A stretch of 64,000 bases of DNA from Acidimicrobiia bacterium (GTDB taxonomy: Bacteria > Actinomycetota > Acidimicrobiia > IMCC26256 > PALSA-610). The stretch lies in the NCBI GenBank assembly GCA_038238245.1, contig JBBRXX010000003.1:21486-85485 (forward strand), in the 5' to 3' direction. The notes below the pieces were generated by a model. The model was not told where the DNA came from, searched no databases, and was given only the letters and a program-made list of their open reading frames with translations. The position numbers were made by a program, and so were the translations under genes. Below are positions 29,252-64,000 of the stretch, piece after piece (positions within the stretch are counted from its first letter, which is position 1; each line of letters starts with the position of its first letter).

Positions 29252-31324
29252 TCATCCGAGCACATGCGTTCGTCGCAGGAGGTTGTCGACCTCAGCGGCT
29301 CGCGACCGGGCGAAGGTAGCCGTGAGGTGATTCACGTCGCGCTTGACGATGATGTCGTCAACGATCGGGTCACACGTGGGCAGGCGTGGACACACGACCC
29401 GATCGAGGTCCAGCGTCACGATTTGTGGCGGCGAGGCACTCTGCCGGAAGAACTGCTCGAGAGGTGTCGGGCCCCGACTGGCTTGATACGTGCAGCGCGA
29501 GCGCCCTTCGGAGATGCAAGACAGCGGGTCGAAGGGATCAGGTGGTCGCGGCGTCGGTTCGATGATCACGATTCTTCTTCCCGCCGTCATCAGGGCGCGA
29601 AGGCTGTCCGCCGAACGCGCTTGGAGGAACGGCTCGAATTGCTCCGAGCGAGCATCGACGACGCGGCCGTCTGGCCCGAGGAAACGGTTTGAACGTATGG
29701 GATCGTCGTACGGGGCTTGCGCAAGCACCACGATGTCGGGTGCGTACTGCGGGACGACACGGTCGTACCAATCTTTCTGATGGGCGTCGCATTGCCGCGT
29801 GACTACGGCAGCCCCGGCGTACTGCAGCCCGCGTTGCCACGGACAGCCCGGGTAGATCGCGACCGAGAGCTGGAACGACTCGCGCTTCGCGATCTCGGTG
29901 AACGTCGGGAGCCACATCCGGGCGATGCTGTCGCCGACCAGTAAGACGCGACGACCGCCGCCGCGAACGGCCGCGCAACGATCGATCGGTGCGTGGAGGC
30001 AGTCGGGAAGCTTCGGGACGTCAGCCCGTGCGGTCCGCCAATCGAGGAGACGCAGACCGGTCTTCGTGCCGGTCGAGATGGATTGCGCCGCGACCGAGGA
30101 GCTGGTGCGGTCGAGGATCGCCGGCATGACGAGAAGTCCCATGAGCGCGCTCGACACCAGGCCGACCGCGATGACCGGCAGTTTCACACGATCGAGCGGG
30201 CGCGAAGTCCGCACCGGGCGCTCGAGCAGGTGGAAGCTCAGCATTGCGAGGCCGGTTGCGCCCAGCGTCGCGAGGATGAACAGCGGCACGGGATCGATGT
30301 CGCGGTCGTGGGTGACCAAGACGACGACCGGCCAGTGCCACAGATAGGTGCCGTAGGAAACGCGGCCCAGGTAGGTGAGCGGCCGCCACGAGAGAAATCC
30401 CCGTGCCGCGCCGCCATCGGCTTCTCCCAGCGCCACGATGACCACCGCAGTGAGGACTGCCGCCACGACTCCCCGGGAGATCGGGCCGAGATCCAACGCG
30501 GCCGTCCCGGTGAACACGAGCGCGACAAGCGCGAGCGCGGCGCAAACCCGGGCCGGTCTCCGGACGCGCTCGCTTGCGTTGAACAGCTGGGGAGTCAGTG
30601 CGAGGAATGCCCCCGCAAGGAGCTGATACGCGCGCGTGTCGGTGCCGTAGTACGCGCGGTCGAGATTCGTCCGCGCGATGTAGAGCGCCTCGATCGCCGA
30701 GACAATGCCGAAGGCAAGCACGAACCCTCGCAAGACGACCCAGCGCTGCCTTCCGGCCCGCTTTGCGACGAAGTACAGGCCGCCCAGCAGCGCCGGCCAG
30801 AAGATGTAGAACTGCTCCTCGACCGCGAGGGACCAGAAATGCAGAACCGGGTTCGAGCCGACCGCCCCCGCGGCGAAGTAGTCAGTCGATTGACGAATGA
30901 AGAACCAGTTCGCGACGTACAAGAAGGCCGCGCGAAACCCACCGAGGGCGTCCTGCATCTCCGCAGGCGACGCGACGACTGAATAGGCGATCGCGGTGAC
31001 GAGCAGCGCGAGCAGCGCGGCGGGCAGCAATCGGCGCACGCGCCGCGCGTAGAAGCGTGGCCAGTTGATGCTGCCGGTCGTCCGCAGGTCACCGAGCAGG
31101 ATCGAGGTGACGAGAAACCCCGACAACACATAGAAGACGTCGACGCCGATGAACCCGCCGCGGAACCAGCCCAGGCGCGAGTGAAACGCGACCACCAGGT
31201 ACACCGCCACCGCTCTGAGCCCGTCGAGCTCAGGCCGATACTTGAAGGCCGACTCATGCGAACGCGCGTCGGGCGAGATCTCTCGCCGCGGCCCGTCGGT
31301 AGCCCCAATTGTCGGTGTCGCCAT
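29252..31324 (-). CDS. Acyltransferase family 3 membrane protein with C-terminal SGNH hydrolase domain (OatA/OafA-type O-acyltransferase)
   Basis: LDGLRAVAVYLVVAFH, VDVFYVLSGFLVT; ten TM helices then an SGNH-like region. Start ATG 31324. Confidence 0.85.
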   Translation of the reverse strand: MATPTIGATDGPRREISPDARSHESAFKYRPELDGLRAVAVYLVVAFHSRLGWFRGGFIGVDVFYVLSGFLVTSILLGDLRTTGSINWPRFYARRVRRLLPAALLALLVTAIAYSVVASPAEMQDALGGFRAAFLYVANWFFIRQSTDYFAAGAVGSNPVLHFWSLAVEEQFYIFWPALLGGLYFVAKRAGRQRWVVLRGFVLAFGIVSAIEALYIARTNLDRAYYGTDTRAYQLLAGAFLALTPQLFNASERVRRPARVCAALALVALVFTGTAALDLGPISRGVVAAVLTAVVIVALGEADGGAARGFLSWRPLTYLGRVSYGTYLWHWPVVVLVTHDRDIDPVPLFILATLGATGLAMLSFHLLERPVRTSRPLDRVKLPVIAVGLVSSALMGLLVMPAILDRTSSSVAAQSISTGTKTGLRLLDWRTARADVPKLPDCLHAPIDRCAAVRGGGRRVLLVGDSIARMWLPTFTEIAKRESFQLSVAIYPGCPWQRGLQYAGAAVVTRQCDAHQKDWYDRVVPQYAPDIVVLAQAPYDDPIRSNRFLGPDGRVVDARSEQFEPFLQARSADSLRALMTAGRRIVIIEPTPRPPDPFDPLSCISEGRSRCTYQASRGPTPLEQFFRQSASPPQIVTLDLDRVVCPRLPTCDPIVDDIIVKRDVNHLTATFARSRAAEVDNLLRRTHVLG

Positions 31325-31388
31325 CTGGGGACCGCCCCGTTGTACGCGAACGGGGGAGAGGTGCTTCTTCGCGATTAGGGAGTCGGGC

Positions 31389-32639
31389 TCATGGCGAGGT
31401 TGGCGGGGGTGTCGTGCCCGTTCCGCCGCTTCCACTGGTCGGCAGCGGGATGAGCGGTGTGAGGTTCTTGTCGAACGGCAGGATGATCGTGCTGTTGTTC
31501 GGCGAGTTGACGAGCTGCTTCAGCGCCTGGATGTAGCTGAACTGCAGGTACGCCGGCGTCAACTGTGCTTGCGAGCACTCGGCGATCGGGTTCGGAATGA
31601 CGGTCTGCACCACCTGGCCGTCCCGCAGCGTCGTGGACGGCTTGCCGCCACACGCGAGGATCTGCTGCGAATCAGCCGTCGCCAACGCCTGGATCCTGGT
31701 GATGTCCGCGGCCTGCCTTGCCGTGAGAAGTTCGAACTTCTGCTGCTGTGCATTCTGCTGTGACGCCACCTTGTTGTTCACCGCGGTCTGCAGGCCTGTG
31801 CCGAGCGCCACTTCACGCAGCTGGAACTCCTGGAGCAGGAGGCCCTGCGGCTCGATCTTGGTCTTCATGCACTGGGCGACCTCGGACTCGAGGCGCCGCC
31901 ACGCCGTCGTCGCCGCCTCGACGATCGTGTAGAGCGTGAACTGCGTGCGAATGCACGTCCTGGCGGTCGGCCGAACGATCTGGCTCGCATACTTGGTTCC
32001 GAGGGTGCGGTACACGTCGGTCGCGCGCCTCGGGTCGAGGCGGTACAGCACGGTTGCATTCACGTTCGCGGCACCGCCGTCCGAACCCAGCACCGCAACG
32101 GAGTCATCGGCGCTCGCCGCCGCGCCCTCACCCTTGAGCGCCGACATCGTGTAGTTCTGCGTCCGCACAGACATCCCATAGGTAGTAGTGAACGGAAGCG
32201 TGATGTGGAAACCCGCCGACAACGGCTTGCTCGCGTGGCCGAGGGTTACCGGCACCGCGACCGAGCCCGGCTTGACGATGTGAATCGACGTCCACACGAA
32301 CACGATGGCGAACGCGATGGCAATCGACGTCCCGAGGCGCTTCCACGAGCGCGGCCCGATGGTGCCGTCGGGGTTGCGGGGACGCATGATGCCCAAGGTG
32401 ATCAGGACGGTGCTGATCCCGGCGCCGATCTGACGGAAGAGGAACCGCCCGAACGACGGCGCCGTCTTGGGCTCCCGGCGTTCGGAGACCAGGGCGCCGA
32501 TGGGCCGCTGTACCCGAGGTTCGCTGGTCATTCTGGGCGGCTGGTCGATCGGCGGCCCGTCGCCACCATTGCCGCCATCACTGAAGTCGTCCGTGGAACC
32601 GCTGTCCGGCATCGGCGCATCGTAACGAATATCGACCAA
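31389..32639 (-). CDS. SPFH/band-7 domain membrane protein
   Basis: TM anchor, then an SPFH-like core, then a Gln/Ala-rich coiled region and Pro/Thr-rich tail. Confidence 0.7.
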   Translation of the reverse strand: MVDIRYDAPMPDSGSTDDFSDGGNGGDGPPIDQPPRMTSEPRVQRPIGALVSERREPKTAPSFGRFLFRQIGAGISTVLITLGIMRPRNPDGTIGPRSWKRLGTSIAIAFAIVFVWTSIHIVKPGSVAVPVTLGHASKPLSAGFHITLPFTTTYGMSVRTQNYTMSALKGEGAAASADDSVAVLGSDGGAANVNATVLYRLDPRRATDVYRTLGTKYASQIVRPTARTCIRTQFTLYTIVEAATTAWRRLESEVAQCMKTKIEPQGLLLQEFQLREVALGTGLQTAVNNKVASQQNAQQQKFELLTARQAADITRIQALATADSQQILACGGKPSTTLRDGQVVQTVIPNPIAECSQAQLTPAYLQFSYIQALKQLVNSPNNSTIILPFDKNLTPLIPLPTSGSGGTGTTPPPTSP

Positions 32640-32684: not shown

Positions 32685-33581
32685 CTATTTGGCACTCCAA
32701 CGCGCGCGGAACGCAGCGAGCTCGTCCGGTGCGTAGAAATGCCGTGCGTACGCAGTCGCGTACGCACGTTCGAGCACGGCGTCGGGCAGGGACACTTCAC
32801 GAAGGAACGAGCGGTACGCGGCGGCGTACTCCAAGGCCTCGGCGTCGTTGCGGCGCGCGATCGGTACGGTCGCCGGGAGGCGGAGGAACTCACGCAGCGC
32901 TTCCGGTGCGCGGTCGAGATCCTCCTGCCGCGCGAGCAGCACGCGAACGGCGGGCGTGTCGATTGTCGAGAAGCCGGCCGATGGGTCGAACGGGTACGCG
33001 AACACGTCGACGCCGAGCGTTGGCAGGAATTCCCGTTCGAACCAACGCATCGGCATGCGGAGCCAATCCTCGGCGAGTATGCGCTCGGTCAACGCCGCGA
33101 CATCCTGGTGGTCCTGCAGCGTGCCGCTGCGCCGGCCGCCGTGGAAGAACGCGGACACGGCCTGGGCGACCGGCTCGCGCACGGTCGTGATGACATCCCA
33201 CGGCTTCTGCGGCGTGGGCATGTGCCGGAGGAGGAATTCCGTCTCCCAGAGGTGAAGCGCTCCGGGGAACCGCACAGTCGACGCATCCTTACGACCACGT
33301 TTCGCATCGCGGTGCGATGCGCGGTAGCGCTTCTCGGCGCCGGCGAGCTCGGCCGCGTTGAGCCGGAAGACCTGAAATGCGCGTCGACCCGTCGCGTCCG
33401 AGACGGCGCGCGCGATTGCAGTGCTTCCGGTCTTGCCCATCGTGAAGACGACGATTCGCCGGTCGGCATCACCGCGCATCTGCCACATGGCGTAGCGCTT
33501 CGAGATCGCGTAGCTCCGCCCCGCGATACTTCGAGCTGCATCGTGCGCCCGGCGCCGAGCGCGGATCGAGGGTGGCGCCAT
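32685..33581 (-). CDS. Sulfotransferase-family protein (Stf0-like, P-loop type)
   Basis: IVVFTMGKTGSTAIARAV resembles the PAPS 5'-phosphosulfate-binding loop of Stf0-type sulfotransferases. Confidence 0.55.
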   Translation of the reverse strand: MAPPSIRARRRAHDAARSIAGRSYAISKRYAMWQMRGDADRRIVVFTMGKTGSTAIARAVSDATGRRAFQVFRLNAAELAGAEKRYRASHRDAKRGRKDASTVRFPGALHLWETEFLLRHMPTPQKPWDVITTVREPVAQAVSAFFHGGRRSGTLQDHQDVAALTERILAEDWLRMPMRWFEREFLPTLGVDVFAYPFDPSAGFSTIDTPAVRVLLARQEDLDRAPEALREFLRLPATVPIARRNDAEALEYAAAYRSFLREVSLPDAVLERAYATAYARHFYAPDELAAFRARWSAK

Positions 33582-33591
33582 GTTCGCGTCC

Positions 33592-34419
33592 CTAGACGTC
33601 TTCGAGCGCTGCCGCGTCCGTGTCCTCGATGTCCTCTTCCGCGAAATACGCCTCGACCGCTTCGGACGCGGGGGCGTCCATGCGGAGCTCGCCGCGGTCG
33701 AGCCAGATGCAATGCTCCGCGAGCAGCCTCACCACCTCGAGTCCGTGCGACACGATCAACACCGTGCAGTCCCGCTCGCAGAGCTCACGGATCTTTTCCA
33801 TGCATCTCAGCTTGAACGCGGCGTCACCGGCGGAGAGCGCCTCGTCGATCAGCAGGATCTCCGGGTTCAGGTGCACGGCGACCGCGAACGCGAGGCGGCC
33901 GAACATGCCCGACGAGTACGTGCGCATCGGGAAGTCGATGGCGCCACCGAGCCCTGCGAACTCCTCGATCTCGTCCTCGTGGACCCGCACCTCGTCGCCG
34001 GCGAGACCGACGGTCAATCCTCCGAGGAGGATGTTCTCTCTTCCGGTGAGCTCACGGTTGAATCCGATGCCGAGCGACAGCAGCGGCGTGACGTGGCCCC
34101 ACACCGCGACCCGCCCCGCCGTAGGCGGCAGGATGCCGGCGATGCAGCGCAGCAGTGTGGTCTTGCCGGCGCCGTTGCGGCCGATGATCCCGTACACGGC
34201 GCCCGACGGCACCTCGAAGCTCACGCCGCGCAACGCCTCGACGAGCATCGCCTGCTTGCGCTCGCTGCGGCGATGCAAGCCGACGAGCCGGTTTCTCAGG
34301 GTCGGGCGTCCCTCTCGGTTGGCGCGAAAGGTCACCCAGAGGTCGTCGACCCATATCGCCGGAGGACGATCAGAGCCGGACGGCAAATTCCCGCTCCTTC
34401 GCAAGGAAGATGAGTGCAC
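33592..34419 (-). CDS. Polysaccharide ABC exporter ATP-binding protein (Wzt/TagH-like)
   Basis: Walker A GRNGAGKTT, signature YSSGM, Walker B LLIDEA. Confidence 0.85.
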   Translation of the reverse strand: MHSSSLRRSGNLPSGSDRPPAIWVDDLWVTFRANREGRPTLRNRLVGLHRRSERKQAMLVEALRGVSFEVPSGAVYGIIGRNGAGKTTLLRCIAGILPPTAGRVAVWGHVTPLLSLGIGFNRELTGRENILLGGLTVGLAGDEVRVHEDEIEEFAGLGGAIDFPMRTYSSGMFGRLAFAVAVHLNPEILLIDEALSAGDAAFKLRCMEKIRELCERDCTVLIVSHGLEVVRLLAEHCIWLDRGELRMDAPASEAVEAYFAEEDIEDTDAAALEDV

Positions 34420-35218
34420 CGACGACGAAGATGCCGACCGCCCACGCGGCGGCCGCGAGCAAGTTTCCCGAAGAAGGGAACTGCGCGTTGAAGATCTGCT
34501 CGAGAGCCCCGAAGAACGGGTAGAGCGGATTCCACTGCAGGTACACCTTGAGGTTCGCCGGGATCTCCTTCGTCGAGTACAGCACCGGTGTCATGTACAG
34601 CCAGAGTCTGTTGAGGTACGGCAGAAAGTTCGCCGTGTCTCGAAAGAACACGTTGGCGGCGGCCATGATGAAGATGACGCCCAGATTGAAGACGGTCAGG
34701 AGCGGCACCACGAGCAGCAGGCTCAGCAGGGAAAGGCCGAACGGCTGGCCGAGAATGGCATGGAAGATTCCGTAGATGGCCAGCGTCGGCAGGAAATCGA
34801 GAATGCTTTTCACGATCGCGACGAGCGGGAGCACGGCGCGCGGAAACGACGCGTTGAGGACCAAGCCCCTCCCGCTGATGAGCGAGCGCGCGCCATAGCT
34901 CATCGAGTTGTTCGTGAAGGTGAAGAAGAAGACGCCCCAGATCAGGTGCGACAGGATGAGGGCGCGGGTGTCGCCGGTGCCGGCCGACTTCACGACGGAG
35001 CGGAAGAAGAAGTACACGCCGGCCGACAGCAACGGATCGAGGATGATCCACGCCTGTCCGATGACCGTCCCGTAGTTCTTCGACTTGAGGTCGGTGCGGG
35101 CGAGGTGCCAGATGAAACGGCGCCGTACACGCAGGTCGTGGAGGTAACGCCGCATCGGCGGAAGACCGGACTCGGTCGCCTCGTAGACCGATGGCATGCG
35201 GATGGAGGACGCCGACAT
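34370..35218 (-). CDS. ABC-2 type polysaccharide exporter permease (Wzm-like)
   Basis: Six TM helices and the ABC-2 signature region; start uncertain (MSASSIR 35218 or MPSVYEAT 35197). Confidence 0.8.
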   Translation of the reverse strand: MSASSIRMPSVYEATESGLPPMRRYLHDLRVRRRFIWHLARTDLKSKNYGTVIGQAWIILDPLLSAGVYFFFRSVVKSAGTGDTRALILSHLIWGVFFFTFTNNSMSYGARSLISGRGLVLNASFPRAVLPLVAIVKSILDFLPTLAIYGIFHAILGQPFGLSLLSLLLVVPLLTVFNLGVIFIMAAANVFFRDTANFLPYLNRLWLYMTPVLYSTKEIPANLKVYLQWNPLYPFFGALEQIFNAQFPSSGNLLAAAAWAVGIFVVGALIFLAKEREFAVRL

Positions 35219-43792: not shown

Positions 43793-43796
43793 GCGG

Positions 43797-47719: not shown

Positions 47720-47904
47720 ACAGACGAGCAGGAAGACTCCGATGACGATGCGCCATCTGCGCTTGACCGCACGGAAGACGTCTTGAGCGCTCAGCGTTCG
47801 ATCCTTAGCATCGGAATTTGGCCTCCGTACGTGTCTTCAGAATACTACGCACCGTGACGACCGCAGAGAGTGCGGTGCCGACCGCGCGGGATGAGTATCT
47901 GAGG

Positions 47905-49988: not shown

Positions 49989-50086
49989 TCCCGCGTCCAA
50001 GTGTGTGGCCGCGCGCGTTGGCGCGTCGCCTGCGCGCCGCGCTCGTGACGCGCGGCTCACACCGCGGGACCCGCGCCGCGGCCACG

Positions 50087-53837: not shown

Positions 53838-54533
53838 GTGAAGGCTCCGAGCAGGCGCATCCTCGTCACGGGTTCCAACCGTGGCATCGGGCTGGAGTTT
53901 GTTCGCCAGTACCTGGCGTGCGGAGACGAAGTCATCGCGACCTGCCGGGATCCGGCGCGCGCCGACGAGCTGCGCGCGCTCGACGGCGATCTGCGTCTCG
54001 CAAAGCTGGATATCTCCTCGGAAGCCGATCTCGACGCACTGACGGCAGAGCTCGAAGGCCTCGCGATCGATCTTCTCATCTGCAACGGTGCAGTCTTCGG
54101 CGGTCCTCGGTCACGGCTCGACAACCTCGACGTGGGCGCGTGGCGAGCGGCCCTCGAGGTGAACCTCCTCGGCACGATTCGCGGGGCAATGCGCCTTTCG
54201 AAGAACGTCGCCGAGAGCAACGAGCGGAAGATCTTGGTGCTCTCCAGTCGCGCCGGCTTGCCACGCGAGGCTCGACCCCACATGTCGTACATCTACGCGT
54301 CCAGCAAGGCGGCCCTCAACGCCGCGGTCCGATGCCTCGCGCTCGACCTGCGCGAGCAGGGCGTGTTGGTCGCCCTGCTCAACCCCGGACACGTGAAGAC
54401 GGGCATCGGAGGCCCGGGCGCGCCGATGCGCACCGACGAGAGCGTGTCGATGATGCGTGACGTGATCGCGAACCTCGCGATCGAGCACACAGGTCGGTTC
54501 TGGCACTTCGACGGGACCGAGCTGCGACTCTGA
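53838..54533 (+). CDS. SDR family oxidoreductase (C-factor/CsgA-like short form)
   Basis: RILVTGSNRGIGLEF, catalytic YIYASSKAA; GTG 53838. Confidence 0.75.
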   Translation: MKAPSRRILVTGSNRGIGLEFVRQYLACGDEVIATCRDPARADELRALDGDLRLAKLDISSEADLDALTAELEGLAIDLLICNGAVFGGPRSRLDNLDVGAWRAALEVNLLGTIRGAMRLSKNVAESNERKILVLSSRAGLPREARPHMSYIYASSKAALNAAVRCLALDLREQGVLVALLNPGHVKTGIGGPGAPMRTDESVSMMRDVIANLAIEHTGRFWHFDGTELRL

Positions 54534-54605
54534 CGACATCTGCGCGCGACATCCGCACGGGTGCGGGCCGAGTACCGTGCGGCCATGTCGAGTCCCCGGC
54601 GCGGC

Positions 54606-56510: not shown

Positions 56511-58981
56511 CGGATCCCCTACCGAACCCCGTCGACGACGCCGAGCAAGCCGCCAGATGGCTTCGCGTCAGGGCATACATCGCGACGTTCGCGGTCGTCG
56601 AGCTCGGCGGCTTCGTGTTGTGTGTGCTGCTCGGAAGCCCGGCATGGTTCAACCGAGACGAGTGGGACTTCGTCGCCGGCCGCCGAGCCGGCAATCTGCG
56701 AGACCTGTTCCGCCCGCACAACGAGCACTGGACCACGCTGCCGATCCTCGTCTACCGGGCGCTCTTCGGACTGTTCGGCCTGCGGACGTACCTGCCGTAC
56801 CGCCTCGTGGTGCTGTTGCTCCACCTCGCGGCGGCTGCACTGCTGTTCGTCGTGATGCGGCGTGCCGGCGTCCGGCCGTGGATCGCGCCCGCCGCCGCCT
56901 CGCTGTTCGTGTTCTTCGGTGCGGGTTGGCAGAACATCATCCAGCCGTTTCAGATGTGCTTCACCGGCGCGTTGGCGCTCGGCCTCGCGCACCTGCTGCT
57001 CGCCGACCACGACGGAGGAATCAATCGACGGGACGCGCTCGGTCTGTTCGCCGGGCTCGCCGCGTTGATGACGTCCGGCGTGGGCGTGACGATGGTGGTC
57101 GTCGTCGGCCTCGCCGTGCTGTTGCGGCGCGGGTGGCGACCAGCGCTCTTGCACACCGCGCCGCTCGCCGCGTGCTTTCTCGTCTGGCTGTGGGCGATCG
57201 GCGGTGACAGCTACAGGAACGAGCATCCGTCGGTCGGCGACGTGTTTCGATTCGTTTCGACAGGGCTGCGTGCCGCCTACTCGGCGATGGGACGGTTGCC
57301 GGCGTCCGGCCTCGTCCTGGCGATCGTGCTGATCGTCGGGATCGCTCTGGCGTGGCGCCAGCGCGCGCGATCGCGCGAGCTTCGGGGACTGGCCGCACCG
57401 GTCGCCTTGCTGATGGGATCGGCGGTCTTTCTCGCGATCACATCGACCGGTCGCCTCGTCAACGGTCTCGAGACCGCACGCGCCTCACGCTACCTCTACC
57501 TCATCGCCGCGATGACGCTGCCCGCGCTCGCGGTCGCCGCAGACGCGTTGGTCAGGCGATGGCGAGTATTGGCCCCGGTTGCGATGGCCCTCTTCCTCAT
57601 CGGTGTGCCGAGCAATGTGCGCGCGCTCGTGAACTCGCAACACACGATGCGGCCGTTCTACGCCTCCACGCGGGAGATGTTCCTGGCACTGCCGCGCGAT
57701 CCGTTCGCGCGACAAGTCCCGCGGTCGCTCCGGCCCGAGAGAGTTGCGGCGAGCGAGGTCACGATTGGATGGCTGCTCGATCTCGTGGCGCACCACCGGA
57801 TCCCCGCGCCGCACCAGACGTCCACGAGAACGCTCGAATCGAATCGATTTCGGCTGTCGTTCGACCAGCAAGACGCGTCCGCACCGACGAGCCCGTGTCG
57901 CGCTTTGACCCATCCATTCACGGTCGCGCTGAGGAAGGGCGACATCATCGGTGTGCACGAGCATCCGTTGACGATCTCGCCGGCGGGGGGCTTGCGGCTT
58001 GTCGGTCCGCCGATCTCGTTCAGGCCCGGCGCGGATCTGGTGGTCGAGGCGCTTCGTGACACCGGTCCCGTACGCCTCGGTGCCGCGTCGGTCCTCGCAC
58101 CGCGCTTGTGCGGGACCCGGGTTGGCACGTCCCTCTCCAACTGCTGCACGCACGCTGAGCTGCACGCATACGCTCGTTTTCGGGGACGCCGCACTACCGT
58201 GACTCGAGTGTTGCGACTGACGGTTCGTCTTCGCGACGGTCCTGACGACGTGCGGGATTGCGCCCTGAGGTTGCGGCGCGCCGCACCACCTGAGATGCGC
58301 ATCGTGGCCGCGTTCGCGGAATCGAAGTCCGTCGAGGCGTACTTCGATGTCGGCGAAGGAGTCGAGCCGCACGCGATCGGGCTGCTCGCAGAGCGCCTCG
58401 GCTTCGACGACTACGAGCTGACGGGCGTCGAACCCGTGTCGGCGGATGTCAGTGGACGCGAGCCGGCGCTGGAAGTTGCGCCGTTGCGGTGTCACCGGCA
58501 CCCCGCCACGATCATGCAGATCGTCCTGCAGCCCGACGGCCGCACACTGCGCATCCAGGCTCGGCATCGACGCCACGAGACCATCCAAGGCGTCGACGTC
58601 GACGAGACCGACCGAGATGTGCGCGTCGACGTTCTCGTCGGTATTCCTCGGGCCGACCCGTACGCCGGCCGCGTTTCCTTCGCCCTCGACTTCAGCGTCG
58701 TGCGGATCCGTTTGGATCAGCCGCTCGGCGACCGTCAGGTCGTCGGGGGAGGCAAGGCGTTCTCGGTGCGGCGCGAGGGGGCCGTTGACGATCTCGCTCA
58801 TGCGTCCGCCGAGGAGGTGCTGGCGCGCCTCGAGCGCTACGCCGCGGCCGTTCGCGGATCGTCGCTCGAGCAGGGGGTGCCGGCCGGCGGCGGCGTCGGG
58901 GTCGCTCCCGCCGCGGTTGGCGACACCCGGCGGCCATGGTGGCGTCCACGCGCCTGGAGGCGACCGATCACGGTCCCGTAG
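56432..58981 (+). CDS. GT-C-fold-like polytopic membrane protein (putative polyprenyl-phosphate-sugar-dependent glycosyltransferase) with large C-terminal extracytoplasmic domain
   Basis: About 11 TM helices; conserved N-terminal DEWDFVAGRRAGNLRDLFRPHNEHWTTLPILVYR shared with the paralog at 61923..63539. Start uncertain (ATG 56432 overlaps the upstream gene by 79 nt). Confidence 0.55.
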   Translation: MAARPSAPAGAGRTSPRRLRAPRRALTDPLPNPVDDAEQAARWLRVRAYIATFAVVELGGFVLCVLLGSPAWFNRDEWDFVAGRRAGNLRDLFRPHNEHWTTLPILVYRALFGLFGLRTYLPYRLVVLLLHLAAAALLFVVMRRAGVRPWIAPAAASLFVFFGAGWQNIIQPFQMCFTGALALGLAHLLLADHDGGINRRDALGLFAGLAALMTSGVGVTMVVVVGLAVLLRRGWRPALLHTAPLAACFLVWLWAIGGDSYRNEHPSVGDVFRFVSTGLRAAYSAMGRLPASGLVLAIVLIVGIALAWRQRARSRELRGLAAPVALLMGSAVFLAITSTGRLVNGLETARASRYLYLIAAMTLPALAVAADALVRRWRVLAPVAMALFLIGVPSNVRALVNSQHTMRPFYASTREMFLALPRDPFARQVPRSLRPERVAASEVTIGWLLDLVAHHRIPAPHQTSTRTLESNRFRLSFDQQDASAPTSPCRALTHPFTVALRKGDIIGVHEHPLTISPAGGLRLVGPPISFRPGADLVVEALRDTGPVRLGAASVLAPRLCGTRVGTSLSNCCTHAELHAYARFRGRRTTVTRVLRLTVRLRDGPDDVRDCALRLRRAAPPEMRIVAAFAESKSVEAYFDVGEGVEPHAIGLLAERLGFDDYELTGVEPVSADVSGREPALEVAPLRCHRHPATIMQIVLQPDGRTLRIQARHRRHETIQGVDVDETDRDVRVDVLVGIPRADPYAGRVSFALDFSVVRIRLDQPLGDRQVVGGGKAFSVRREGAVDDLAHASAEEVLARLERYAAAVRGSSLEQGVPAGGGVGVAPAAVGDTRRPWWRPRAWRRPITVP

Positions 58982-60030
58982 ACGGCGGCCTCGCTCCGCG
59001 GCCGTCCGGCTTCGTGGGGTGCCGTCAGAACCGGCTGTGTGGCCCCCAGGGGCGCTCGGGCGCCATCCCGACACCGAGGGGCGGGCGGGACTTCACAGGA
59101 CGTGAGCGGTCGCCGGTCGCGCGAGTAGCGTGCTGCGTCTTGCAGGTTCCGCACTCCGAACACGCCGCCGAGATACTCGCCCAACGGGTCGCCGGCCGTT
59201 ACTCCGACCTCCTGCCCCGCCCCGAGCACAAATTCGACCTGCCGGCGGACCTTGTACAGGGCAAGCGCGTCCTGGTCACGGGTGCGGATGGCTTCCTCGG
59301 CCGCCGGATCGCCGAACGCCTCGATGCCGGCGGCGCGGAGACATACCTGACCGACCTCGAAGATCTCGACATCACCAACGGCGAGCTGGTGGATCAGACG
59401 ATGCGCCGGCTGCGGCCGGACCTCGTGATCCACCTCGCGGCCATGAAGCACGCGCCGGTCGGCGAGGTTCACCCACTCGAAACGACGCAGGTCAACGTGG
59501 TCGGCACGCACAACGTCATCGAAGCTGCGACGGTTGCCGGCGTACTTCCCGGCAACCTTGTCTTCGTGTCGACGTGCAAGGCCGCCGCGCCCGAGACGGT
59601 GTACGGGGCGACGAAGCTCTTGGGCGAGCGCATCACGCTGCGCGCCGGATACTCCGCGGTGCGGCTCGGCAACGTGCTCGGCTCGAGCGGCTCGGTGCTC
59701 GAGACCTGGGTCGCGCAACGTGAGAACGGCGACCCCCTGGCCGTGTCTCCGTGCCTGCGCTACTGGCTGACGCCGGACGAAGCCGTCGGTTTGAACCTGT
59801 CGGCGTTCTTCCTCGGCCCCGGTCTGTACTACCTCGACGCCGGTGTGCCCGAGCCGGTCGAGAATCTGGCGCGGCGCTTCGAGCCCGGCGTCGAGCTCGA
59901 GGAGATCCCACCCCGGCTCGGTGACCGGCTGGTGGAACGGTTCGTTTCCGACGGAGAGGTTTCCGTGCCGACCGCGATCTCATGCGTGCTGCGCATCCGG
60001 GAAGTGTGGGAAGCGACCGCAGAGGCGTAG
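58936..60030 (+). CDS. NDP-sugar dehydratase/epimerase, CapD (Polysacc_synt_2) family, soluble short form
   Basis: KRVLVTGADGFLG Rossmann motif and GATKLLGERIT...RLGNVLGSSGSV. Codon usage suggests the true start is near TTG 59140 rather than ATG 58936. Confidence 0.6.
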   Translation: MVASTRLEATDHGPVDGGLAPRPSGFVGCRQNRLCGPQGRSGAIPTPRGGRDFTGRERSPVARVACCVLQVPHSEHAAEILAQRVAGRYSDLLPRPEHKFDLPADLVQGKRVLVTGADGFLGRRIAERLDAGGAETYLTDLEDLDITNGELVDQTMRRLRPDLVIHLAAMKHAPVGEVHPLETTQVNVVGTHNVIEAATVAGVLPGNLVFVSTCKAAAPETVYGATKLLGERITLRAGYSAVRLGNVLGSSGSVLETWVAQRENGDPLAVSPCLRYWLTPDEAVGLNLSAFFLGPGLYYLDAGVPEPVENLARRFEPGVELEEIPPRLGDRLVERFVSDGEVSVPTAISCVLRIREVWEATAEA

Positions 60031-60181: not shown

Positions 60182-61213
60182 ATGACCGAGCCCGAGTTCT
60201 CCTTCGTCGTACCGATCCTCAACGAGCGCGAGACGCTCCCCGAGCTGTGCCGGCGCCTTGCGGCGGTCATGGACATGCTCCCGGGCTCCGCGGAAGTCGT
60301 GCTCGTCGACGACGGTTCGACCGACGGCTCGTACGAGCTGATGCTCGACGTGCGCCGGCGCGACCCCCGCATCAAGGCGCTGCGACTGTCGCGGAACTTC
60401 GGGCACCAGATGGCGCTCACCGCGGGACTCGACCACGCGCAGGGCCGCGCCGTCATCATCATGGACGGCGACCTCCAGGACCCGCCCGAGGTTGCGCTCG
60501 AGCTCGTAGCCAAATGGCAAGAGGGCTACGAGGTCGTGTACGCCGTGCGCGACCACCGCTCGGGCGAGTCGTGGCTCAAACGCAAGACCGCGACCGCGTT
60601 CTACCGTCTGATGAGCCGGCTCGGGGAGATCAAGATTCCTCAAGAGACCGGCGACTTCCGTCTGGTCGATCGCCGGGCAGTCGACGCGGTCACCGCGATG
60701 CGAGAACACCGCAGGTACCTGCGGGGCATGTTCGCCTGGGTCGGATATCGTCAAACGGGGGTCTCGTACGAACGCGATGCTCGCTACGCGGGCCAGACGA
60801 AGTTCTCGATCAAACGCATGATCGCGTTCGCGGTCGACGGAATCGTCTCGTTCTCCGAGGTGCCTCTCCGCCTCGCGTTGGCGGGAGGATTCGTCGTCTC
60901 GGTGCTGTCGTTCCTCCTCGGCGTCCTCGCCATCCTGCTCAAGATCGCGGGGATCTACACGGTTCCGGGCTGGGCGTCGATCGTGGTCGGCCTGGCGTTC
61001 TTCAGCGGTGTGCAGCTGAGCGTTCTCGGCGTGATGGGCATCTATGTCGCGCGCATCCACGAAGAGGTGAAACAGCGCCCGCTCTACCTCGTGCGGGACT
61101 CGGCCGGCTTCGCCTTCACGCGATCACGCGCTGACGAGTGGTCGGTCCACGAGCCTGACCTGGCGAACGACGGCGGCGACGAGCCGTTGACGCGTCGCGC
61201 GCCGTTTCGATGA
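60182..61213 (+). CDS. Polyprenyl-phosphate glycosyltransferase, GT2 family (GtrB/ArnC/dolichol-phosphate mannosyltransferase-like)
   Basis: FSFVVPILNERETLPEL, VVLVDDGSTDGS, IIMDGDLQDPPE, two C-terminal TM helices. ATG 60182; upstream 113 codons of track ORF rejected. Confidence 0.85.
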   Translation: MTEPEFSFVVPILNERETLPELCRRLAAVMDMLPGSAEVVLVDDGSTDGSYELMLDVRRRDPRIKALRLSRNFGHQMALTAGLDHAQGRAVIIMDGDLQDPPEVALELVAKWQEGYEVVYAVRDHRSGESWLKRKTATAFYRLMSRLGEIKIPQETGDFRLVDRRAVDAVTAMREHRRYLRGMFAWVGYRQTGVSYERDARYAGQTKFSIKRMIAFAVDGIVSFSEVPLRLALAGGFVVSVLSFLLGVLAILLKIAGIYTVPGWASIVVGLAFFSGVQLSVLGVMGIYVARIHEEVKQRPLYLVRDSAGFAFTRSRADEWSVHEPDLANDGGDEPLTRRAPFR

Positions 61214-61893
61214 GCCGTTTCGACTCGTACACCGATTCGTACGAAGCAGCGGTCGAGCAATCGATCGGATTCTCGGGGCAGAAGGTTTCCTATTTCGGGC
61301 GGCGAAAAGCGGTGCAGTTGCTCGACGTGTGCCGCCGATACGTCGGCAGTCCCGAGAAACTCTCCGTACTCGATGTCGGTTGCGGCATCGGCATCACCGA
61401 CGAGCATCTCGTCGGGCAAGTGCGAGAGCTGCACGGCGTCGATGTTTCTGCCGAGGCGGTCGAGCGCGCGGCGGCGCGCAATCCAGAGGCCCGCTATGGC
61501 GTCTGCTCGGAACACTCGCTGCCGTTCGATTCGGGGAGCTTCGACGTCGCGTTCGCGGTGTGCGTGATCCATCACCTCAGCCCCGAGAAGCGCGTCAATT
61601 TCGCCTGCGAGATGCGCCGGGTCGTGCGCCCGGGCGGGGTCGTCGTGCTCTTCGAACACAACCCGCTGAACCCGCTCACGCGGTTCGCCGTGAGCAGGTG
61701 CGAGTTCGATGACGACGCCATCCTGCTCGGTAGGCACGCGGCCGGCGAACTGCTGAAGAGTGCGGCGCTTCGTCCGGTCGAGCGTCGTTACGTCGTGTTC
61801 TTCACGCGGGGTGAAGCCCGTGTTCGTGCAGTCGAGCGGCTGCTGCGTGCCGTGCCGCTCGGCGCGCAGTACTACGTCGTCGGCGCTCGCTGA
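61210..61893 (+). CDS. Class I SAM-dependent methyltransferase
   Basis: VLDVGCGIGIT (motif I), FDVAFAVCVIHHL; ATG overlaps upstream stop (ATGA). Confidence 0.75.
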   Translation: MSRFDSYTDSYEAAVEQSIGFSGQKVSYFGRRKAVQLLDVCRRYVGSPEKLSVLDVGCGIGITDEHLVGQVRELHGVDVSAEAVERAAARNPEARYGVCSEHSLPFDSGSFDVAFAVCVIHHLSPEKRVNFACEMRRVVRPGGVVVLFEHNPLNPLTRFAVSRCEFDDDAILLGRHAAGELLKSAALRPVERRYVVFFTRGEARVRAVERLLRAVPLGAQYYVVGAR

Positions 61894-61922: not shown

Positions 61923-63539
61923 CTAGCCGCAGAGCGTCGCGCGAGGACTGGTGTTCGAGTTCACGGGCGCAATACGGAGTTGGAGCGGTCCGGCCAGTGC
62001 TATGAAGGTCGCGGGCGTGATGGGCATGGGCGCCGAAGGCGCGCGCCCTTGCGGCACATAGGTCACCGTAGCGTTCGCGTCTCGCAGCGTCAGACGCTGG
62101 TCCTTCTGGACGGTGCGCACCACTGGTCGGATGAGCGTCTCGCACGGTCCGGTCTGCGGCAGGTTCGAGGGAACGAGCGCGAGCGCGAGTGTTTCGTTCG
62201 AGATCGCGGCCGGCGGGCGCGCCGGTGGCTCCGGTATTCGGCCGGACGGCAGGCTGTCGATCAGCCACCCGAGGGTGAGACGGGGGGCGAGCGCGACCGA
62301 GCGGGGCAGCTGACGCGCAAGCGGCAATCGTGGCGCGGTCAAGATGTACGGGCGGCGCGCTTTCACGAAGGCGGAGCGGTTGATGTCGGCGTAGCTCGCG
62401 AGCTTGTCGATGTTGCCGGGAACGCCGACGAGCAGGAGCGCGACGACGACGATCGCCGCGCGGCGCCAGTGCCTGATCAGCGTGTCGGCGGCGAGCGTCA
62501 GGGCCGGCAGGACCATCGCGGCGACGATGTGGACGTACCGCGACGTGCGCGCGTGCTCCGGTCCGAATCCCTTGTACAACACGGCCAAGCCGTTCTCTGT
62601 GCCCGCGCGGTAGAGCGCGGTGATGGCCAGGAACGTGACTGCGCCGCCGAGCAACGCGACCGCCGCCGACGCACTCCCGCGCAGGACGCGCGGATTCTCG
62701 CGTACGCATACCGCGAGACCCACGATGAGGAGCACGGCGAGCGCGACCCCGACGCCCGGCAGCTGACCCATGCCGCGGAACACTGCGCGGAACCCGACCG
62801 CGATGAAGCGGATCATCTCGCCCGGCGAGTTGGCGTGGTAGTACGCGGGCGAGTCCTCCTTCGGTGCGGCGGCCCGCCACACGAGGTAGACGGCCGCGAG
62901 GGGCGCGGTGTGCAGGAGTGCGACGCGCCAACCGCGACGCAACAGGGTCGCGTAGCCGACGACGATGGCCATGGTCACCGCGACGCCCGAGCACATGAGG
63001 CCGGCGATTCCGGCGAGCAGGCCCAACCAGTCCCGCCGGTCGACCGGCCCGTCGTGATCCGCGAGCAGCAGGTGCGCGAGACCGAACACGAGCGCGAACA
63101 CGAACGTGATCTGAAATGCGACGAGAATGTTTTCGGCTCCCGCGCCGAAGAACACGAACAACGTCGCGGCGGCCGTTGAGAGCCACGGTCCGACCCCGGC
63201 GCGGCGCATCACAACCTGCAACAGGGCCGCAACCGTGAGGTGGCCGAGGATCACGAGCAGTTGGTACGGCGCTGCACTGTGAAGACCCGTCAACTGCCAC
63301 ATCAGCCGGTACGCGACGATGGGGATCGTGGTCCAGTGCTCGTAGTGCGCACGGAAGAGATCGCCGAGATTGCCGCCTGTGCGCGCCGCGAGGAAGTCCC
63401 AGTCGTCGAGCTGGAACCACGTGCCACGGTCCCACCACAACATGAGGGGCACGGCGACGAGCTCGATCGCTCCGAACACGAGCAGCGCCGCGTGGGCCTG
63501 CGACGCGGGTCGGTCGACCCGAGCTTCCGTCTTCTGCAC
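61923..63539 (-). CDS. GT-C-fold-like polytopic membrane protein, paralog of 56432..58981
   Basis: DDWDFLAARTGGNLGDLFRAHYEHWTTIPIVAYR and colinear TM topology with the paralog. Confidence 0.6.
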   Translation of the reverse strand: MQKTEARVDRPASQAHAALLVFGAIELVAVPLMLWWDRGTWFQLDDWDFLAARTGGNLGDLFRAHYEHWTTIPIVAYRLMWQLTGLHSAAPYQLLVILGHLTVAALLQVVMRRAGVGPWLSTAAATLFVFFGAGAENILVAFQITFVFALVFGLAHLLLADHDGPVDRRDWLGLLAGIAGLMCSGVAVTMAIVVGYATLLRRGWRVALLHTAPLAAVYLVWRAAAPKEDSPAYYHANSPGEMIRFIAVGFRAVFRGMGQLPGVGVALAVLLIVGLAVCVRENPRVLRGSASAAVALLGGAVTFLAITALYRAGTENGLAVLYKGFGPEHARTSRYVHIVAAMVLPALTLAADTLIRHWRRAAIVVVALLLVGVPGNIDKLASYADINRSAFVKARRPYILTAPRLPLARQLPRSVALAPRLTLGWLIDSLPSGRIPEPPARPPAAISNETLALALVPSNLPQTGPCETLIRPVVRTVQKDQRLTLRDANATVTYVPQGRAPSAPMPITPATFIALAGPLQLRIAPVNSNTSPRATLCG

Positions 63540-63543
63540 GGGT

Positions 63544-64000
63544 CTATTTTTGCGCGACGCGCTCGTACAACGCCGCGTAGTCGCGGGCGACGGCCTGGAT
63601 CGAGAAATGGTCGACGACGAATCTGCGTTGTCCTTCGCCGACGTGGCGAGCCAGCTCGCGGTTTTCGACCAGTTGCAGGATCGCGTCTGCGAGGGCCTTG
63701 GGATCGTCCTCGGGCACGATCGTGATGTTCTCGCCCGAGCGGAGCTCGAGGCCCGGGAAGTTGTCGGTGCGTACCACTGACACGACCGGTACGCCGGCCG
63801 CCATCACCTCGAGCGTCGAGGTGCCGAGCCCGAAGTAGTGGAAGTCGTGTGCCTCGACGTCGGAAGCGGCGACGTAGGCGGGAACTTCGTCCTTCGCCAC
63901 CTCACCGGTGCAGACCACATGGTCGCGGACGCCGAGGTCGTCGGCGAGCCCGAGGAACGTGTCGTCGAACACGTGGCCGACCACGAGCACCACGAGATCG
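63544..64000 (-). CDS. Glycosyltransferase family 4, C-terminal part (N-terminus beyond window end)
   Basis: GT4 C-terminal pattern EAHDFHYFGLGTSTLEVMAAGVPVV. Confidence 0.7.
   Translation of the reverse strand, partial: DLVVLVVGHVFDDTFLGLADDLGVRDHVVCTGEVAKDEVPAYVAASDVEAHDFHYFGLGTSTLEVMAAGVPVVSVVRTDNFPGLELRSGENITIVPEDDPKALADAILQLVENRELARHVGEGQRRFVVDHFSIQAVARDYAALYERVAQK

Follow-up and report, generated by a model that had tools for sequence, protein, structure and literature searches.

Here, we report that positions 29252-64000 of the window (the whole 64-kb stretch of DNA that was analyzed) contain a multi-operon locus that probably makes a complex anionic cell-envelope glycopolymer, with a cytoplasmic stage followed by an extracytoplasmic one. 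Genes were mapped by codon usage and assigned to families by Pfam, NCBIfam and PDB sequence searches. The segment carries 27 closely spaced genes with short or negative intergenic gaps, arranged in at least seven transcription units of alternating orientation, and stop/start overlaps join g38-g37-g36-g35-g34, g40-g41-g42, g46-g47 and g49-g50. All genes except the SPFH gene g27 could be assigned to a glycan-related family, and their co-location and synteny suggest functional links among them. A preliminary description of this DNA had correctly delimited a ~35-kb neighborhood but counted more than 30 genes in it. Its calls on gene content were nearly all borne out by the searches; four genes had been missed or left unnamed (g27, the second GNAT gene g41, the third GT-C gene g38 and the pseudokinase gene g39). 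Since the last gene, g52, is cut by the window end, the locus extends beyond the window, as had been proposed. The two methyltransferases placed at its 5' border were also recovered by Pfam: g23 (24864..25766, minus strand), whose homolog (53%) adjoins Wzm/Wzt homologs in the related locus L039, is possibly a locus member, and the membership of g25 (28287..29231, plus strand; Methyltransf_31, 6e-16), for which no homolog was found in any related locus, is uncertain.

Export of the Wzm/Wzt type, as previously suggested, is indicated by two genes at 33592-35218. The ABC ATPase g29 (33592..34404, minus strand; 270 aa; Pfam ABC_tran) is of the Wzt/TarH type (PDB matches: TarH 2.4e-51, Aquifex Wzt 2.5e-47 and Mycobacterium tuberculosis RfbE 3.6e-46) and lacks a C-terminal carbohydrate-binding domain, and the ABC-2 permease g30 (34370..35218, minus strand; Pfam ABC2_membrane, 1.3e-7) is of the Wzm/TarG type (Aquifex Wzm 3.8e-10, TarG 5e-10). 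The solved relatives nearest to this exporter (TarGH, Aquifex Wzm/Wzt and mycobacterial RfbE/RfbD) all move polyprenyl-PP-linked polymers. The SPFH/Band-7 membrane protein g27 (31389..32639, minus strand; Band_7, 7.2e-21) has an ortholog (69%) adjoining the g28 and g29 orthologs in L049.

The candidate initiating enzyme, g34 (41094..42029, minus strand), is polytopic, carries an NLLDGLDGL motif and falls into the WecA/TagO/MraY family of polyprenyl-phosphate HexNAc-1-P transferases (Pfam Glycos_transf_4, PF00953, 5.9e-25), in agreement with the WecA-type initiator described earlier; its match to the NCBIfam WecA model TIGR02380 (4.6e-23) was under cutoff. The 1051-aa g33 (37913..41068, plus strand) is a fusion of a membrane CapD/PglF/WbpM-type NDP-HexNAc 4,6-dehydratase with four to five N-terminal TM segments and a DegT-type 4-aminotransferase (Pfam CoA_binding_3, Polysacc_synt_2 4e-98 and DegT 3.4e-84), a fusion that is kept in L049 (1048 aa, 63%). 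The GNAT protein g35 (42020..42619, minus strand; Acetyltransf_1, with a weak WecD match of 6e-7) is a candidate 4-amino-sugar N-acetyltransferase, and the overlap of its coding sequence with both g34 and g36 suggests that these genes are translationally coupled. Thus, the fusion and the GNAT of the earlier proposal are present, but because of the CapD/PglF architecture of g33 the amino sugar is probably a 2-acetamido-4-amino-2,4,6-trideoxyhexose from UDP-GlcNAc and not a plain 4-amino-4,6-dideoxyhexose. No other sugar-nucleotide pathway, no LCP ligase and no Wzx/Wzy was found within the 64-kb window. The expected deacetylase is g37 (43797..44627, minus strand), a member of the CE4/ArnD/PgaB superfamily (Polysacc_deac_1, 1.5e-16) matching the N-terminal region of PgaB (NCBIfam, 2.5e-8).

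At least nine GT4/GT2 transferases had been counted before; nine recognizable glycosyltransferase domains could be identified, and they lie on eight proteins (g31, g32, g36, g40, g42, g46, g49 and g52). Only g46 is clearly bifunctional where two such proteins had been claimed. Single GT4 domains were assigned by Pfam to g31 (35271..36506, minus strand; Glycos_transf_1/Glyco_trans_1_4), g32 (36550..37674, plus strand; Glycos_transf_1, 2.2e-35), g36 (42616..43800, minus strand) and g40 (47818..49005, plus strand), as well as to the C-terminal 151 aa of g52 (63544..64000, minus strand; Glycos_transf_1, 2.1e-17), whose full-length ortholog in L001 (5099-6301) has 400 aa. The 591-aa g42 (49985..51760, plus strand) has a C-terminal Glyco_trans_1_2 domain (4.9e-21); its N-terminal 440 aa gave a sub-threshold GT2-like match (E 0.03), and no PDB sequence match was obtained for this protein. 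The two-domain g46 (54561..56510, plus strand; Glycos_transf_1 at residues 208-295 and Glycos_transf_2 at 341-453), with orthologs in L001 (93%) and in L002 and L005 (73-74%), is a candidate polymerizing enzyme.

The 3' part of the locus contains the components for extracytoplasmic decoration, and both the GtrB-like lipid-sugar synthase and the two GT-C paralogs of the preliminary description were confirmed. The former, g49 (60182..61213, plus strand), is a GtrB-type polyprenyl-phosphate glycosyltransferase, that is, a lipid-linked sugar donor synthase (Pfam GT2, 1.5e-30), with a C-terminal TM pair and PDB matches to Synechocystis GtrB (5ekp, 5.9e-93) and ArnC (1e-45); its NCBIfam matches to PgfS (1.4e-79) and ArnC (7.3e-48) were both under cutoff. 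The polytopic g51 (61923..63539, minus strand) had no Pfam match, and its GT-C fold was recognized from an AlphaFold2 model (pLDDT 80.9) searched with Foldseek, which returned ArnT (1.7e-3, probability 1.0), then AftB, AftA, AglB and STT3; all high-probability PDB matches were GT-C enzymes, including oligosaccharyltransferases. Its family is large (4145 clusters at E<=1e-3), unannotated and centered on Acidimicrobiia, with invariant D45/D48 directly after TM1. Residues 1 to ~540 of the likewise polytopic g47 (56507..58981, plus strand) are 45% identical to g51. It continues in frame, as the GC3 profile supports, into a part of ~230 aa for which the nearest relative has a gene of its own: residues 597-792 share 77% identity with L001 10343-11056, which stands alone. 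Two further genes belong to this group: g48 (59140..60030, plus strand), a short CapD/PseB-like NAD-dependent epimerase/dehydratase (Polysacc_synt_2, 7.9e-39, and Epimerase) with orthologs of 87-93% across L001-L007, and g50 (61210..61893, plus strand; Methyltransf_11, 2e-20), the one class I SAM methyltransferase reported inside the locus, whose first 4 nt are also the last 4 of g49. Wherever g51 has an ortholog of at least 65% identity, g48 and g52 are found in its neighborhood, and so are g49 and g50 where the contig is long enough; in the wider g51 family a GtrB homolog is adjacent in just 8 of 48 loci. The locus has three GT-C-fold proteins but a single GtrB-type synthase, and the searches of the 64-kb window revealed no GtrA, Wzx-like or ArnEF-like flippase for a lipid-linked sugar.

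The third GT-C-fold membrane protein, g38 (44605..46167, minus strand), represents another unannotated family, one with no sequence relationship to g47/g51. Next to it lies g39 (46172..47719, minus strand), a polysaccharide co-polymerase (PCP)-like protein with weak NCBIfam EpsG/eps_fam matches and PDB matches to BceF (8.9e-5) and CapA/B. Its C-terminal BY-kinase-fold domain lacks the Walker A lysine and the Walker B aspartate, and these degenerate motifs are conserved in four orthologs; g39 resembles chain-length regulators, and its tyrosine-kinase domain is conserved but dead. In a monoderm, a PCP-like protein is unusual for an ABC-transporter pathway. The pairing of g39 with g38 is a hint that a second step, of assembly or attachment, takes place outside the cytoplasm, and what looks like a single WecA-initiated, ABC-exported polymer may therefore be two coupled assembly lines.

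With regard to tailoring, of the two sulfotransferases claimed before, g43 (51771..52586, minus strand) is a carbohydrate-type enzyme by Pfam (Sulfotransfer_3/_1) and PDB matches (3rnl 1.1e-24, heparan-sulfate 3-O-sulfotransferase 3.7e-13 and NDST 3.5e-7), with the motifs GAQKSAT and RNPIDRANS. The other, g28 (32685..33488, minus strand), matches the NKWYS family ('putative capsular polysaccharide synthesis', 2e-14) but no Pfam sulfotransferase model and no PDB sequence, and is probably a sulfotransferase to judge from the PAPS-loop-like motifs MGKTGST and REPVAQAVS read by eye. PAPS-synthesis genes were not found within the 64-kb window. In g26 (29252..31324, minus strand), an AT3 membrane domain (Acyl_transf_3, 3.8e-31; eight hydrophobic segments) is fused to SGNH (1.9e-22), as noted earlier, which makes it a candidate O-acyltransferase for an extracytoplasmic glycan. 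The predicted PhyH and SDR enzymes correspond to g44 (52606..53676, minus strand; Fe(II)/2-oxoglutarate dioxygenase, 5e-19) and to g45 (53838..54533, plus strand; adh_short, 8.1e-27) together with g48, and g41 (49002..49988, plus strand; 328 aa) is a GNAT protein (Acetyltransf_9, 4.1e-11).

The host is a metagenome-assembled genome (MAG) of an uncultured soil Acidimicrobiia bacterium. The search for a conserved core that had been recommended revealed a gene order shared with other Acidimicrobiia MAGs. The contig JBBQGQ010000001.1 (Acidimicrobiia) carries the same genes colinearly over about 50-52 kb, with proteins mostly ~47-75% identical (83-87% for g48 and g52). L049 holds g27-g29, g33-g42 and sulfotransferases, and L002 holds g46 and g48-g52. 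Blocks of the locus recur in at least eight other MAG contigs: the g34-g45 block is present in L011, L013 and L014 and partially in L009 and L043, L011 having no g38 between its g39 and g37 homologs; and the g42-g52 block is present in L001 (80-93% identity), which lacks g47 and g50. Tailoring sets differ, as TylF, CmcI, hexapeptide transferases and UDP-glucose dehydrogenase occur in L002/L052 and are absent here. Because the same genes recur in the same order in other genomes, the clustering is not due to chance. All relatives found are MAG proteins of uncultured Acidimicrobiia/Actinomycetota named 'hypothetical'.

In the first stage, g33 would convert UDP-GlcNAc into a UDP-4-amino-4,6-dideoxy-HexNAc that g35 N-acetylates, and g34 would start a chain on polyprenyl phosphate, to be extended by g31, g32, g36, g40, g42 and g52, with g46 as the likely polymerase; g30/g29 would then export the lipid-linked polymer. 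In the second stage, g49 would load onto polyprenyl phosphate a sugar possibly shaped by g48 and methylated by g50, and from the flipped lipid-sugar g47 and g51 would add side branches to the exported polymer. A further outside step would be performed by g38, grouped with g37 and g39: it would either attach or polymerize a unit carried on a lipid, following the lactococcal dual-chain model, or transfer an amino sugar that has been deacetylated, by an ArnD/ArnT-like logic. Tailoring would involve g43, probably g28, g44, g45, g41 and g26. The family or fold of each protein, the paralogy of g47 and g51 and the conserved gene order are direct observations. Both the polymer and its sulfation are predicted from gene content, as are the substrates, the order of steps, the number of polymers (one or two) and the final acceptor, which may be peptidoglycan, lipid or protein.

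This two-stage reading is favored by the colinear relatives, the solved relatives of the exporter, the g49-GtrB match, the GT-C fold of g51, the overlapping genes, the conserved neighbors of g51 orthologs and the existence of a documented scheme. Points counted against it are the flippase, LCP ligase, other sugar-nucleotide pathways and PAPS synthesis missing from the window, the one-to-three ratio of GtrB to GT-C proteins, the PCP-like protein, the low GtrB adjacency, the motif-only call for g28 and the position of g34. The last of these, g34 being translationally coupled to g35-g38 and co-transcribed with g39 apart from the exporter operon, suggests that it may start a chain other than the exported one. 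It is possible, though we consider it rather unlikely, that the exporter operon g26-g31 (perhaps with g32) makes and exports one backbone, while the g34-g42 block, which moves as a unit in L011, L013, L014 and L049, builds a second lipid-carried oligosaccharide; outside the cell, g38 would polymerize it or attach it to the backbone, g39 would set its length, and g47, g49 and g51 would add monosaccharide branches. The g38/g39 pair indeed mirrors lactococcal WpsH/WpsI/WpsJ (PMC10821137), but the PCP-like g39 domain is a pseudokinase, g38 is not obligatory given its absence in L011, and neither a Wzx-type flippase nor a second initiating transferase for the exporter-linked chain was found in the window.

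A surface-protein or S-layer O-glycan, passed from the ABC-route lipid carrier to protein by a GT-C oligosaccharyltransferase and/or directly from a polyprenyl-P-sugar in a Pmt- or streptococcal Pgf-like manner, appears improbable: the PgfS score of g49 (267.6) is far under the equivalog cutoff (500), ArnT rather than an oligosaccharyltransferase is the best fold match of both g38 and g51, and no S-layer or candidate acceptor gene and no WsaB/PglL-type O-oligosaccharyltransferase was found in the locus. Even harder to accept is a fortuitous neighborhood of unrelated glycan, lipid and secondary-metabolite tailoring genes forming no single system; the alternating transcription units, the variable tailoring genes (L002, L052) and the lack of g47 and g50 in L001 would fit it, but colinearity over ~50 kb despite such diverged proteins, the recurrence of blocks in other contigs and the near-complete assignment to glycan-related families argue against it.

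The logic of the two-stage reading, an ABC-exported chain with three-component GT-C decoration, is a scheme well described in mycobacteria as well as in streptococci and lactococci. As had been stated, the locus is elaborate, but it is not unprecedented in kind. An ABC-exported chain with GtrB/GT-C decoration is documented for streptococcal GAC and SCC and lactococcal Rha-CWPS (PMC10821137, PMC11754754, PMC11127046, 10.1101/180810). The earlier statement that no described pathway corresponds to the locus holds as far as testable, since no locus protein reached an NCBIfam equivalog cutoff and all relatives are 'hypothetical'. The overall design is known, whereas many of its components are members of unstudied families, among them three membrane glycosyltransferases that lack annotation and the two sulfotransferases.

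The GC content of the window (~68%) cluttered raw ORF lists, and genes were mapped with a codon-usage model trained on clear genes, followed by selection of the best non-overlapping set. The resulting map contains 52 genes (g1-g52), of which g26-g52 lie within the glycan locus (29252-64000). The genes of the locus are separated by short gaps, and stop/start overlaps occur in g38-g37-g36-g35-g34, g40-g41-g42, g46-g47 and g49-g50. The analysis as a whole confirmed the overall observation of the preliminary description and supported its interpretation, with corrections. Pfam searches bore out an acyltransferase-3/SGNH protein (g26), an ABC ATPase and an ABC-2 permease (g29, g30), a 1051-aa fusion of CoA_binding_3, Polysacc_synt_2 and DegT domains (g33), a PF00953 initiating transferase (g34), a polysaccharide deacetylase (g37), a sulfotransferase (g43), a PhyH protein (g44), an SDR (g45), a short CapD-like epimerase/dehydratase (g48) and a methyltransferase inside the locus (g50). 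The GNAT call also held, with two such proteins now found (g35, g41). The proposed repertoire of at least nine GT4/GT2 transferases, two of them bifunctional, was recovered in part, as five GT4 genes (g31, g32, g36, g40, g52), one GT4+GT2 fusion (g46), a Glyco_trans_1_2 protein (g42) and a GT2 protein (g49); the N-terminal domain of g42 gave only a sub-threshold GT2-like match (E 0.03) and no PDB sequence match.

The left border chosen previously appears reasonable, since g1-g20 are housekeeping or regulatory genes unrelated to the locus, with four tRNA genes lying between them. It should be noted that a homolog of g23 adjoins Wzm/Wzt homologs in another MAG (locus L039). The two further methyltransferases placed at the 5' border (g23, g25) were recovered by Pfam as well, set among secreted phosphoesterases. 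These, a PF04185 phosphoesterase carrying three FN3 domains and a metallophosphoesterase carrying a PKD domain, belong to a run of secreted proteins at 20955-28162, together with a lipoprotein-like protein of 464 aa that is internally duplicated and has no Pfam match; the run may have a role in phosphate scavenging on the cell surface. An Rfam search of the window returned only the four tRNAs, all outside the locus (Arg-acg at 17377-17450; Asp-gtc, Arg-acg and Arg-ccg within 18990-19228; all on the + strand), directly upstream of a stretch of lower GC (0.62-0.67 between 20 and 30 kb) that runs into the glycan locus. In addition, 11450-12115 (+) strongly matched the NpmA/KamB-type 16S rRNA (A1408) N1-methyltransferase family, scoring 225 bits where the PF24675 cutoff is 60; this is an aminoglycoside-resistance-type enzyme in an environmental Acidimicrobiia genome.

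Initiation and export could be assigned at the family level. The g34 protein is a polytopic WecA/TagO-family phosphoglycosyl transferase (PF00953, 5.9e-25) whose match to TIGR02380 (81.9 bits; equivalog cutoff 326 bits) holds only at that level; no Bac_transf match was found in the window, and none of the locus proteins reached an NCBIfam equivalog cutoff. The closest solved relatives of the ATPase g29 were TarH (2.4e-51), Aquifex Wzt (2.5e-47) and mycobacterial RfbE (3.6e-46), and those of the permease g30 were Wzm (3.8e-10) and TarG (5e-10) (PDB sequences). TarGH, Aquifex Wzm/Wzt and the mycobacterial RfbE relatives all export polyprenyl-PP-linked polymers. At 270 aa, g29 consists of the nucleotide-binding domain only, with no C-terminal carbohydrate-binding domain and no O9a-type chain-end recognition feature in Pfam or PDB comparisons; it is therefore of the TarH/O2a type, without end-cap recognition. 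No Wzx or Wzy Pfam match was found in the window, in which the locus is cut at 64000; a PCP-like protein (g39) is present, and the fold of g38 is GT-C rather than Wzy/WaaL. For amino-sugar synthesis, both the CapD/PglF dehydratase and the DegT aminotransferase domains of g33 were matched, the latter resembling ArnB (1.2e-50, NCBIfam) below the equivalog cutoff. The window contains no rml (rhamnose) genes and no Glf, GlfT, UbiA or DprE (galactofuranose/arabinofuranose) genes.

The synthase of a GtrB/flippase/GT-C glycosylation system would be supplied by g49, which matched the Synechocystis GtrB structure 5ekp at 5.9e-93 and the solved ArnC structure at 1e-45 (PDB sequences), scored 7.3e-48 against the ArnC NCBIfam model (below its equivalog cutoff) and carries a TM pair near the C-terminus (residues 221-285). 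Its score against the streptococcal PgfS equivalog NF047588 was 267.6 bits, short of the cutoff of 500. Polytopic transferases of GT-C fold, the last component of such systems, are also present. A dedicated flippase (GtrA, Wzx-like or ArnE/F-like) was not found in any of the 52 genes of the window, and the intergenic gaps of the locus are all too small to accommodate one; it may be located beyond 64000 or elsewhere.

The paralogs g47 and g51 share 45% identity over about 537 residues. At least 871 homologs of g51 were found, nearly all from uncultured Actinomycetota or Acidimicrobiia; every named one is 'hypothetical' and none has a Pfam domain. A family profile search retrieved 4145 clusters (50% identity) at E<=1e-3 and 1399 at E<=1e-30. 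An AlphaFold model of g51, built from a 17-sequence alignment (pLDDT 80.9), had ArnT, AftB, AftA (two chains) and AglB as its five best PDB matches, with yeast STT3 lower in the list; match probabilities were 0.96-1.0 and TM-scores modest (about 0.4). GT-C enzymes carry an acidic motif in the first loop, and the pair D45 and D48 (WFxxDDWDF), invariant directly after TM1 in the 17 sequences of the g51/g47 alignment, is consistent with such a motif. ArnT was the best fold match for g38 as well, with AftA and AftB among the top matches, and g38 conserves D159/D164 and D128/E129 as candidate residues for such a motif. None of these proteins has detectable sequence similarity to any Pfam family, and profile searches of both families against PDB sequences gave nothing useful. 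Grouping g38 and g51 in one family was rejected (hhalign probability 0.2). Since g38 is unrelated in sequence to g51, the three predicted GT-C-fold proteins of the window represent two new families, as judged from sequence comparison and structural models.

Several other features of these genes were observed. The g51 family forms tandem arrays in several MAGs of Acidimicrobiia (L012, L016, L022), with at least three copies inside 6 kb, and 40 of 48 g51-family loci have no adjoining GtrB homolog. In g47 (56507-58981, + strand), the GT-C domain extends to about residue 540 and is followed in frame by an Arg-rich linker of lower GC3 and a tail of about 230 aa from M597 (nt 58295). This tail is a stand-alone 237-aa gene (77% identity) at 10343-11056 of the nearest related locus, L001, which lacks the GT-C part. 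The g47 protein would be either a true fusion or the product of a stop codon lost after paralog insertion.

The protein encoded by g39 (46172-47719, - strand) combines a PCP-like N-terminal part, one TM segment and a C-terminal domain homologous to BY-kinases (BceF at 8.9e-5; CapB aligned). It lacks the lysine of Walker A, the aspartate of Walker B and the Tyr cluster of active BY-kinases; the P-loop reads P-T-G-G-A-Y-E-E and Walker B V-I-A-G-P-P. An active tyrosine kinase was rejected on these motifs. Because the degenerate state is kept in 3-4 orthologs from three other MAG loci, g39 is best described as a predicted pseudokinase that is maintained, and not as a decaying gene.

Among solved sulfotransferases, g43 matched 3rnl (1.1e-24), HS 3-OST (3.7e-13) and also NDST (PDB sequences), and it has both PAPS-binding motifs, 5'-PSB (GAQKSAT) and 3'-PB (RNPIDRANS). 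The second candidate, g28, matched only NKWYS in Pfam, with no sulfotransferase model in Pfam and no PDB sequence match; its putative assignment comes from sulfotransferase-like motifs read by eye.

A genome scan for g51 relatives yielded 48 loci, all in MAGs and mostly labelled Acidimicrobiia or Actinomycetota; a few are probably mis-binned. In the nearest one, L001 (g51 80% identical), g42-g46, g48, g49, g51 and g52 occur in the same order at 80-93% identity, and g50 is missing along with the GT-C part of g47. The 80% match of g51 to L001 places the source among uncultured Acidimicrobiia. In three others (L011, L013, L014), g34/g35-g45 are present at 47-72% identity together with an inserted gene of the g51 family, and parts of this block occur in L009 and L043. 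On contig JBBQGQ010000001.1 (L002 and L049 together), the whole set is colinear with the window over about 52 kb: exporter ATPase, g28, SPFH, a 1048-aa g33 fusion, g34-g42, sulfotransferases, g46, g49-g51, g48 and g52. This conservation rules out a chance aggregate of genes, and the gene-order comparison supports a single conserved supercluster whose tailoring genes vary. A protein search with the truncated g52 returned only fragments, of at most 94% identity. Past g52, the relatives encode a polytopic protein resembling PMT_2 (E 2.6e-4), hexapeptide acyltransferases and a further member of the g51 family. PhyH, TylF/CmcI methyltransferases, a GDSL protein and large membrane proteins without annotation also occur there. 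Related loci also have further large polytopic membrane proteins without a Pfam match (L002 1764-3968 and 20096-21568; L001 3108-4700), two of which are paralogs (37% identity) and one of which has a sub-threshold PMT_2 match; there are probably more unrecognised GT-C-like families in these clusters. One further locus (L051; ENA contig_26498, 335366-356928) is a long-read assembly of this region, 99% identical, in which many gene calls are broken; the g33 fusion and GT4 genes, for example, are fragmented. These breaks are probably assembly frameshift errors and not biology.

An ABC-exported chain decorated outside by GT-C enzymes with GtrB-made lipid-sugars is a documented scheme (PMC11127046, PMC10821137, PMC11754754, 10.1101/180810). 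In the streptococcal and lactococcal wall polysaccharides GAC, SCC and Rha-CWPS, a TagO/WecA-family initiator, cytoplasmic GTs and a Wzm/Wzt-type ABC exporter build the chain, a GtrB-type synthase (GacI/WpsA) makes polyprenyl-P-sugars, and GT-C enzymes (GacL, WpsJ) transfer them (PMC10821137; 10.1101/180810; PMC11754754). The locus shares the initiator, cytoplasmic GTs, exporter, GtrB-type synthase and GT-C proteins, whereas it has no rml genes, GacJ/WpsB-type activator or Wzx-type flippase in the window and also encodes 4-amino-sugar synthesis, sulfotransferases, a PhyH dioxygenase and an AT3-SGNH protein. In lactococci, a GT-C polymerase is paired with a chain-length partner (PMC10821137), and this dual-chain model is the best analogy for g38/g39.

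Mycobacterial arabinogalactan/LAM synthesis (WecA, RfbD/RfbE, Ppm1/PpgS and the GT-C enzymes AftA-D/Emb/Rv3779), from the same phylum, resembles the locus in its WecA start, homologous ABC exporter and several GT-C enzymes using polyprenyl-P-sugars. Its GalN decoration uses a polyprenyl-P-HexNAc synthase and a GT-C enzyme for an amino-sugar branch. However, the window has no Galf/Araf genes, the GT-C families differ, and sulfation and the PCP-like protein are without counterpart there. In the Arn pathway, ArnB resembles g33, ArnC resembles g49, g37 falls in the ArnD superfamily, and ArnT is the best fold match of g38 and g51; the ArnD product feeds ArnT, and g37 adjoins g38. On the other hand, all scores fall below equivalog cutoffs, ArnA and ArnE/F are absent, the dehydratase belongs to the UDP-GlcNAc CapD type, and the host is a monoderm without lipid A, the target of Arn aminoarabinose. 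The bacillosamine/2,4-diamino-2,4,6-trideoxyhexose route (PglF-PglE-PglD; WbpM type) likewise has a membrane-anchored dehydratase, a DegT aminotransferase and an N-acetyltransferase. In the locus, in contrast, one fusion protein carries the first two, a GNAT (WecD/PseH-like) takes the place of a left-handed beta-helix PglD, and the initiator is polytopic PF00953 instead of monotopic; neither a hexapeptide-repeat PglD acetyltransferase nor a monotopic PglC-type PGT was found in it. Finally, Actinoplanes missouriensis wps-1 is a candidate sulfated exopolysaccharide cluster, Wzx/Wzy/Wzz-dependent, with predicted sulfation, two sulfotransferases of different families (one of heparan-sulfate type) and a methyltransferase (PMC13390465). 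Both are Actinomycetota glycan clusters with a methyltransferase and two sulfotransferases (g43 and putative g28 in the locus), whereas wps-1, from the class Actinomycetes, lacks the ABC exporter and GT-C module present in the locus, which belongs to another class.

The kind of system is known; what is new is the variant, which combines a fusion enzyme for amino-sugar synthesis with three GT-C proteins of unannotated families, a pseudokinase of PCP type and sulfotransferases. We infer its product, substrates and acceptor. A more specific reading, which we consider unlikely, is that this conserved ~50-kb supercluster makes a sulfated, phosphate-free anionic wall polymer, a functional stand-in for teichoic acid, in uncultured soil Acidimicrobiia. 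Outside the cell, two GT-C families not recognised before would add branches to the ABC-exported backbone; one of them (that of g51) is expanded to thousands of sequence clusters and also forms tandem arrays. The dead-kinase PCP partner would govern polymer length or attachment. The secreted phosphoesterases at the 5' border would be in keeping with an envelope strategy that spares phosphate, and the deacetylase near a heparan-type sulfotransferase would allow N-sulfated amino sugars, of which we know no established case in Actinomycetota.

Sulfated glycans in this phylum have so far been a prediction only, in Actinoplanes (PMC13390465). If the sulfotransferases do act on the polymer, the locus would add to this very thin evidence; if they do not, it would be a rich but conventional case of an ABC-exported, GT-C-decorated wall polysaccharide. 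Our analysis also defines two sizeable 'hypothetical', Pfam-less membrane families as GT-C-fold by prediction, that of g51 with ~4,100 clusters at 50% identity and that of g38 with >400 homologs. To our knowledge, the envelope glycopolymers of Acidimicrobiia, a lineage widespread in soil, water and wastewater, have not been described, and a literature search for polysaccharides or sulfotransferases in this class found nothing relevant. The locus provides a concrete, conserved candidate pathway for such an envelope glycopolymer.
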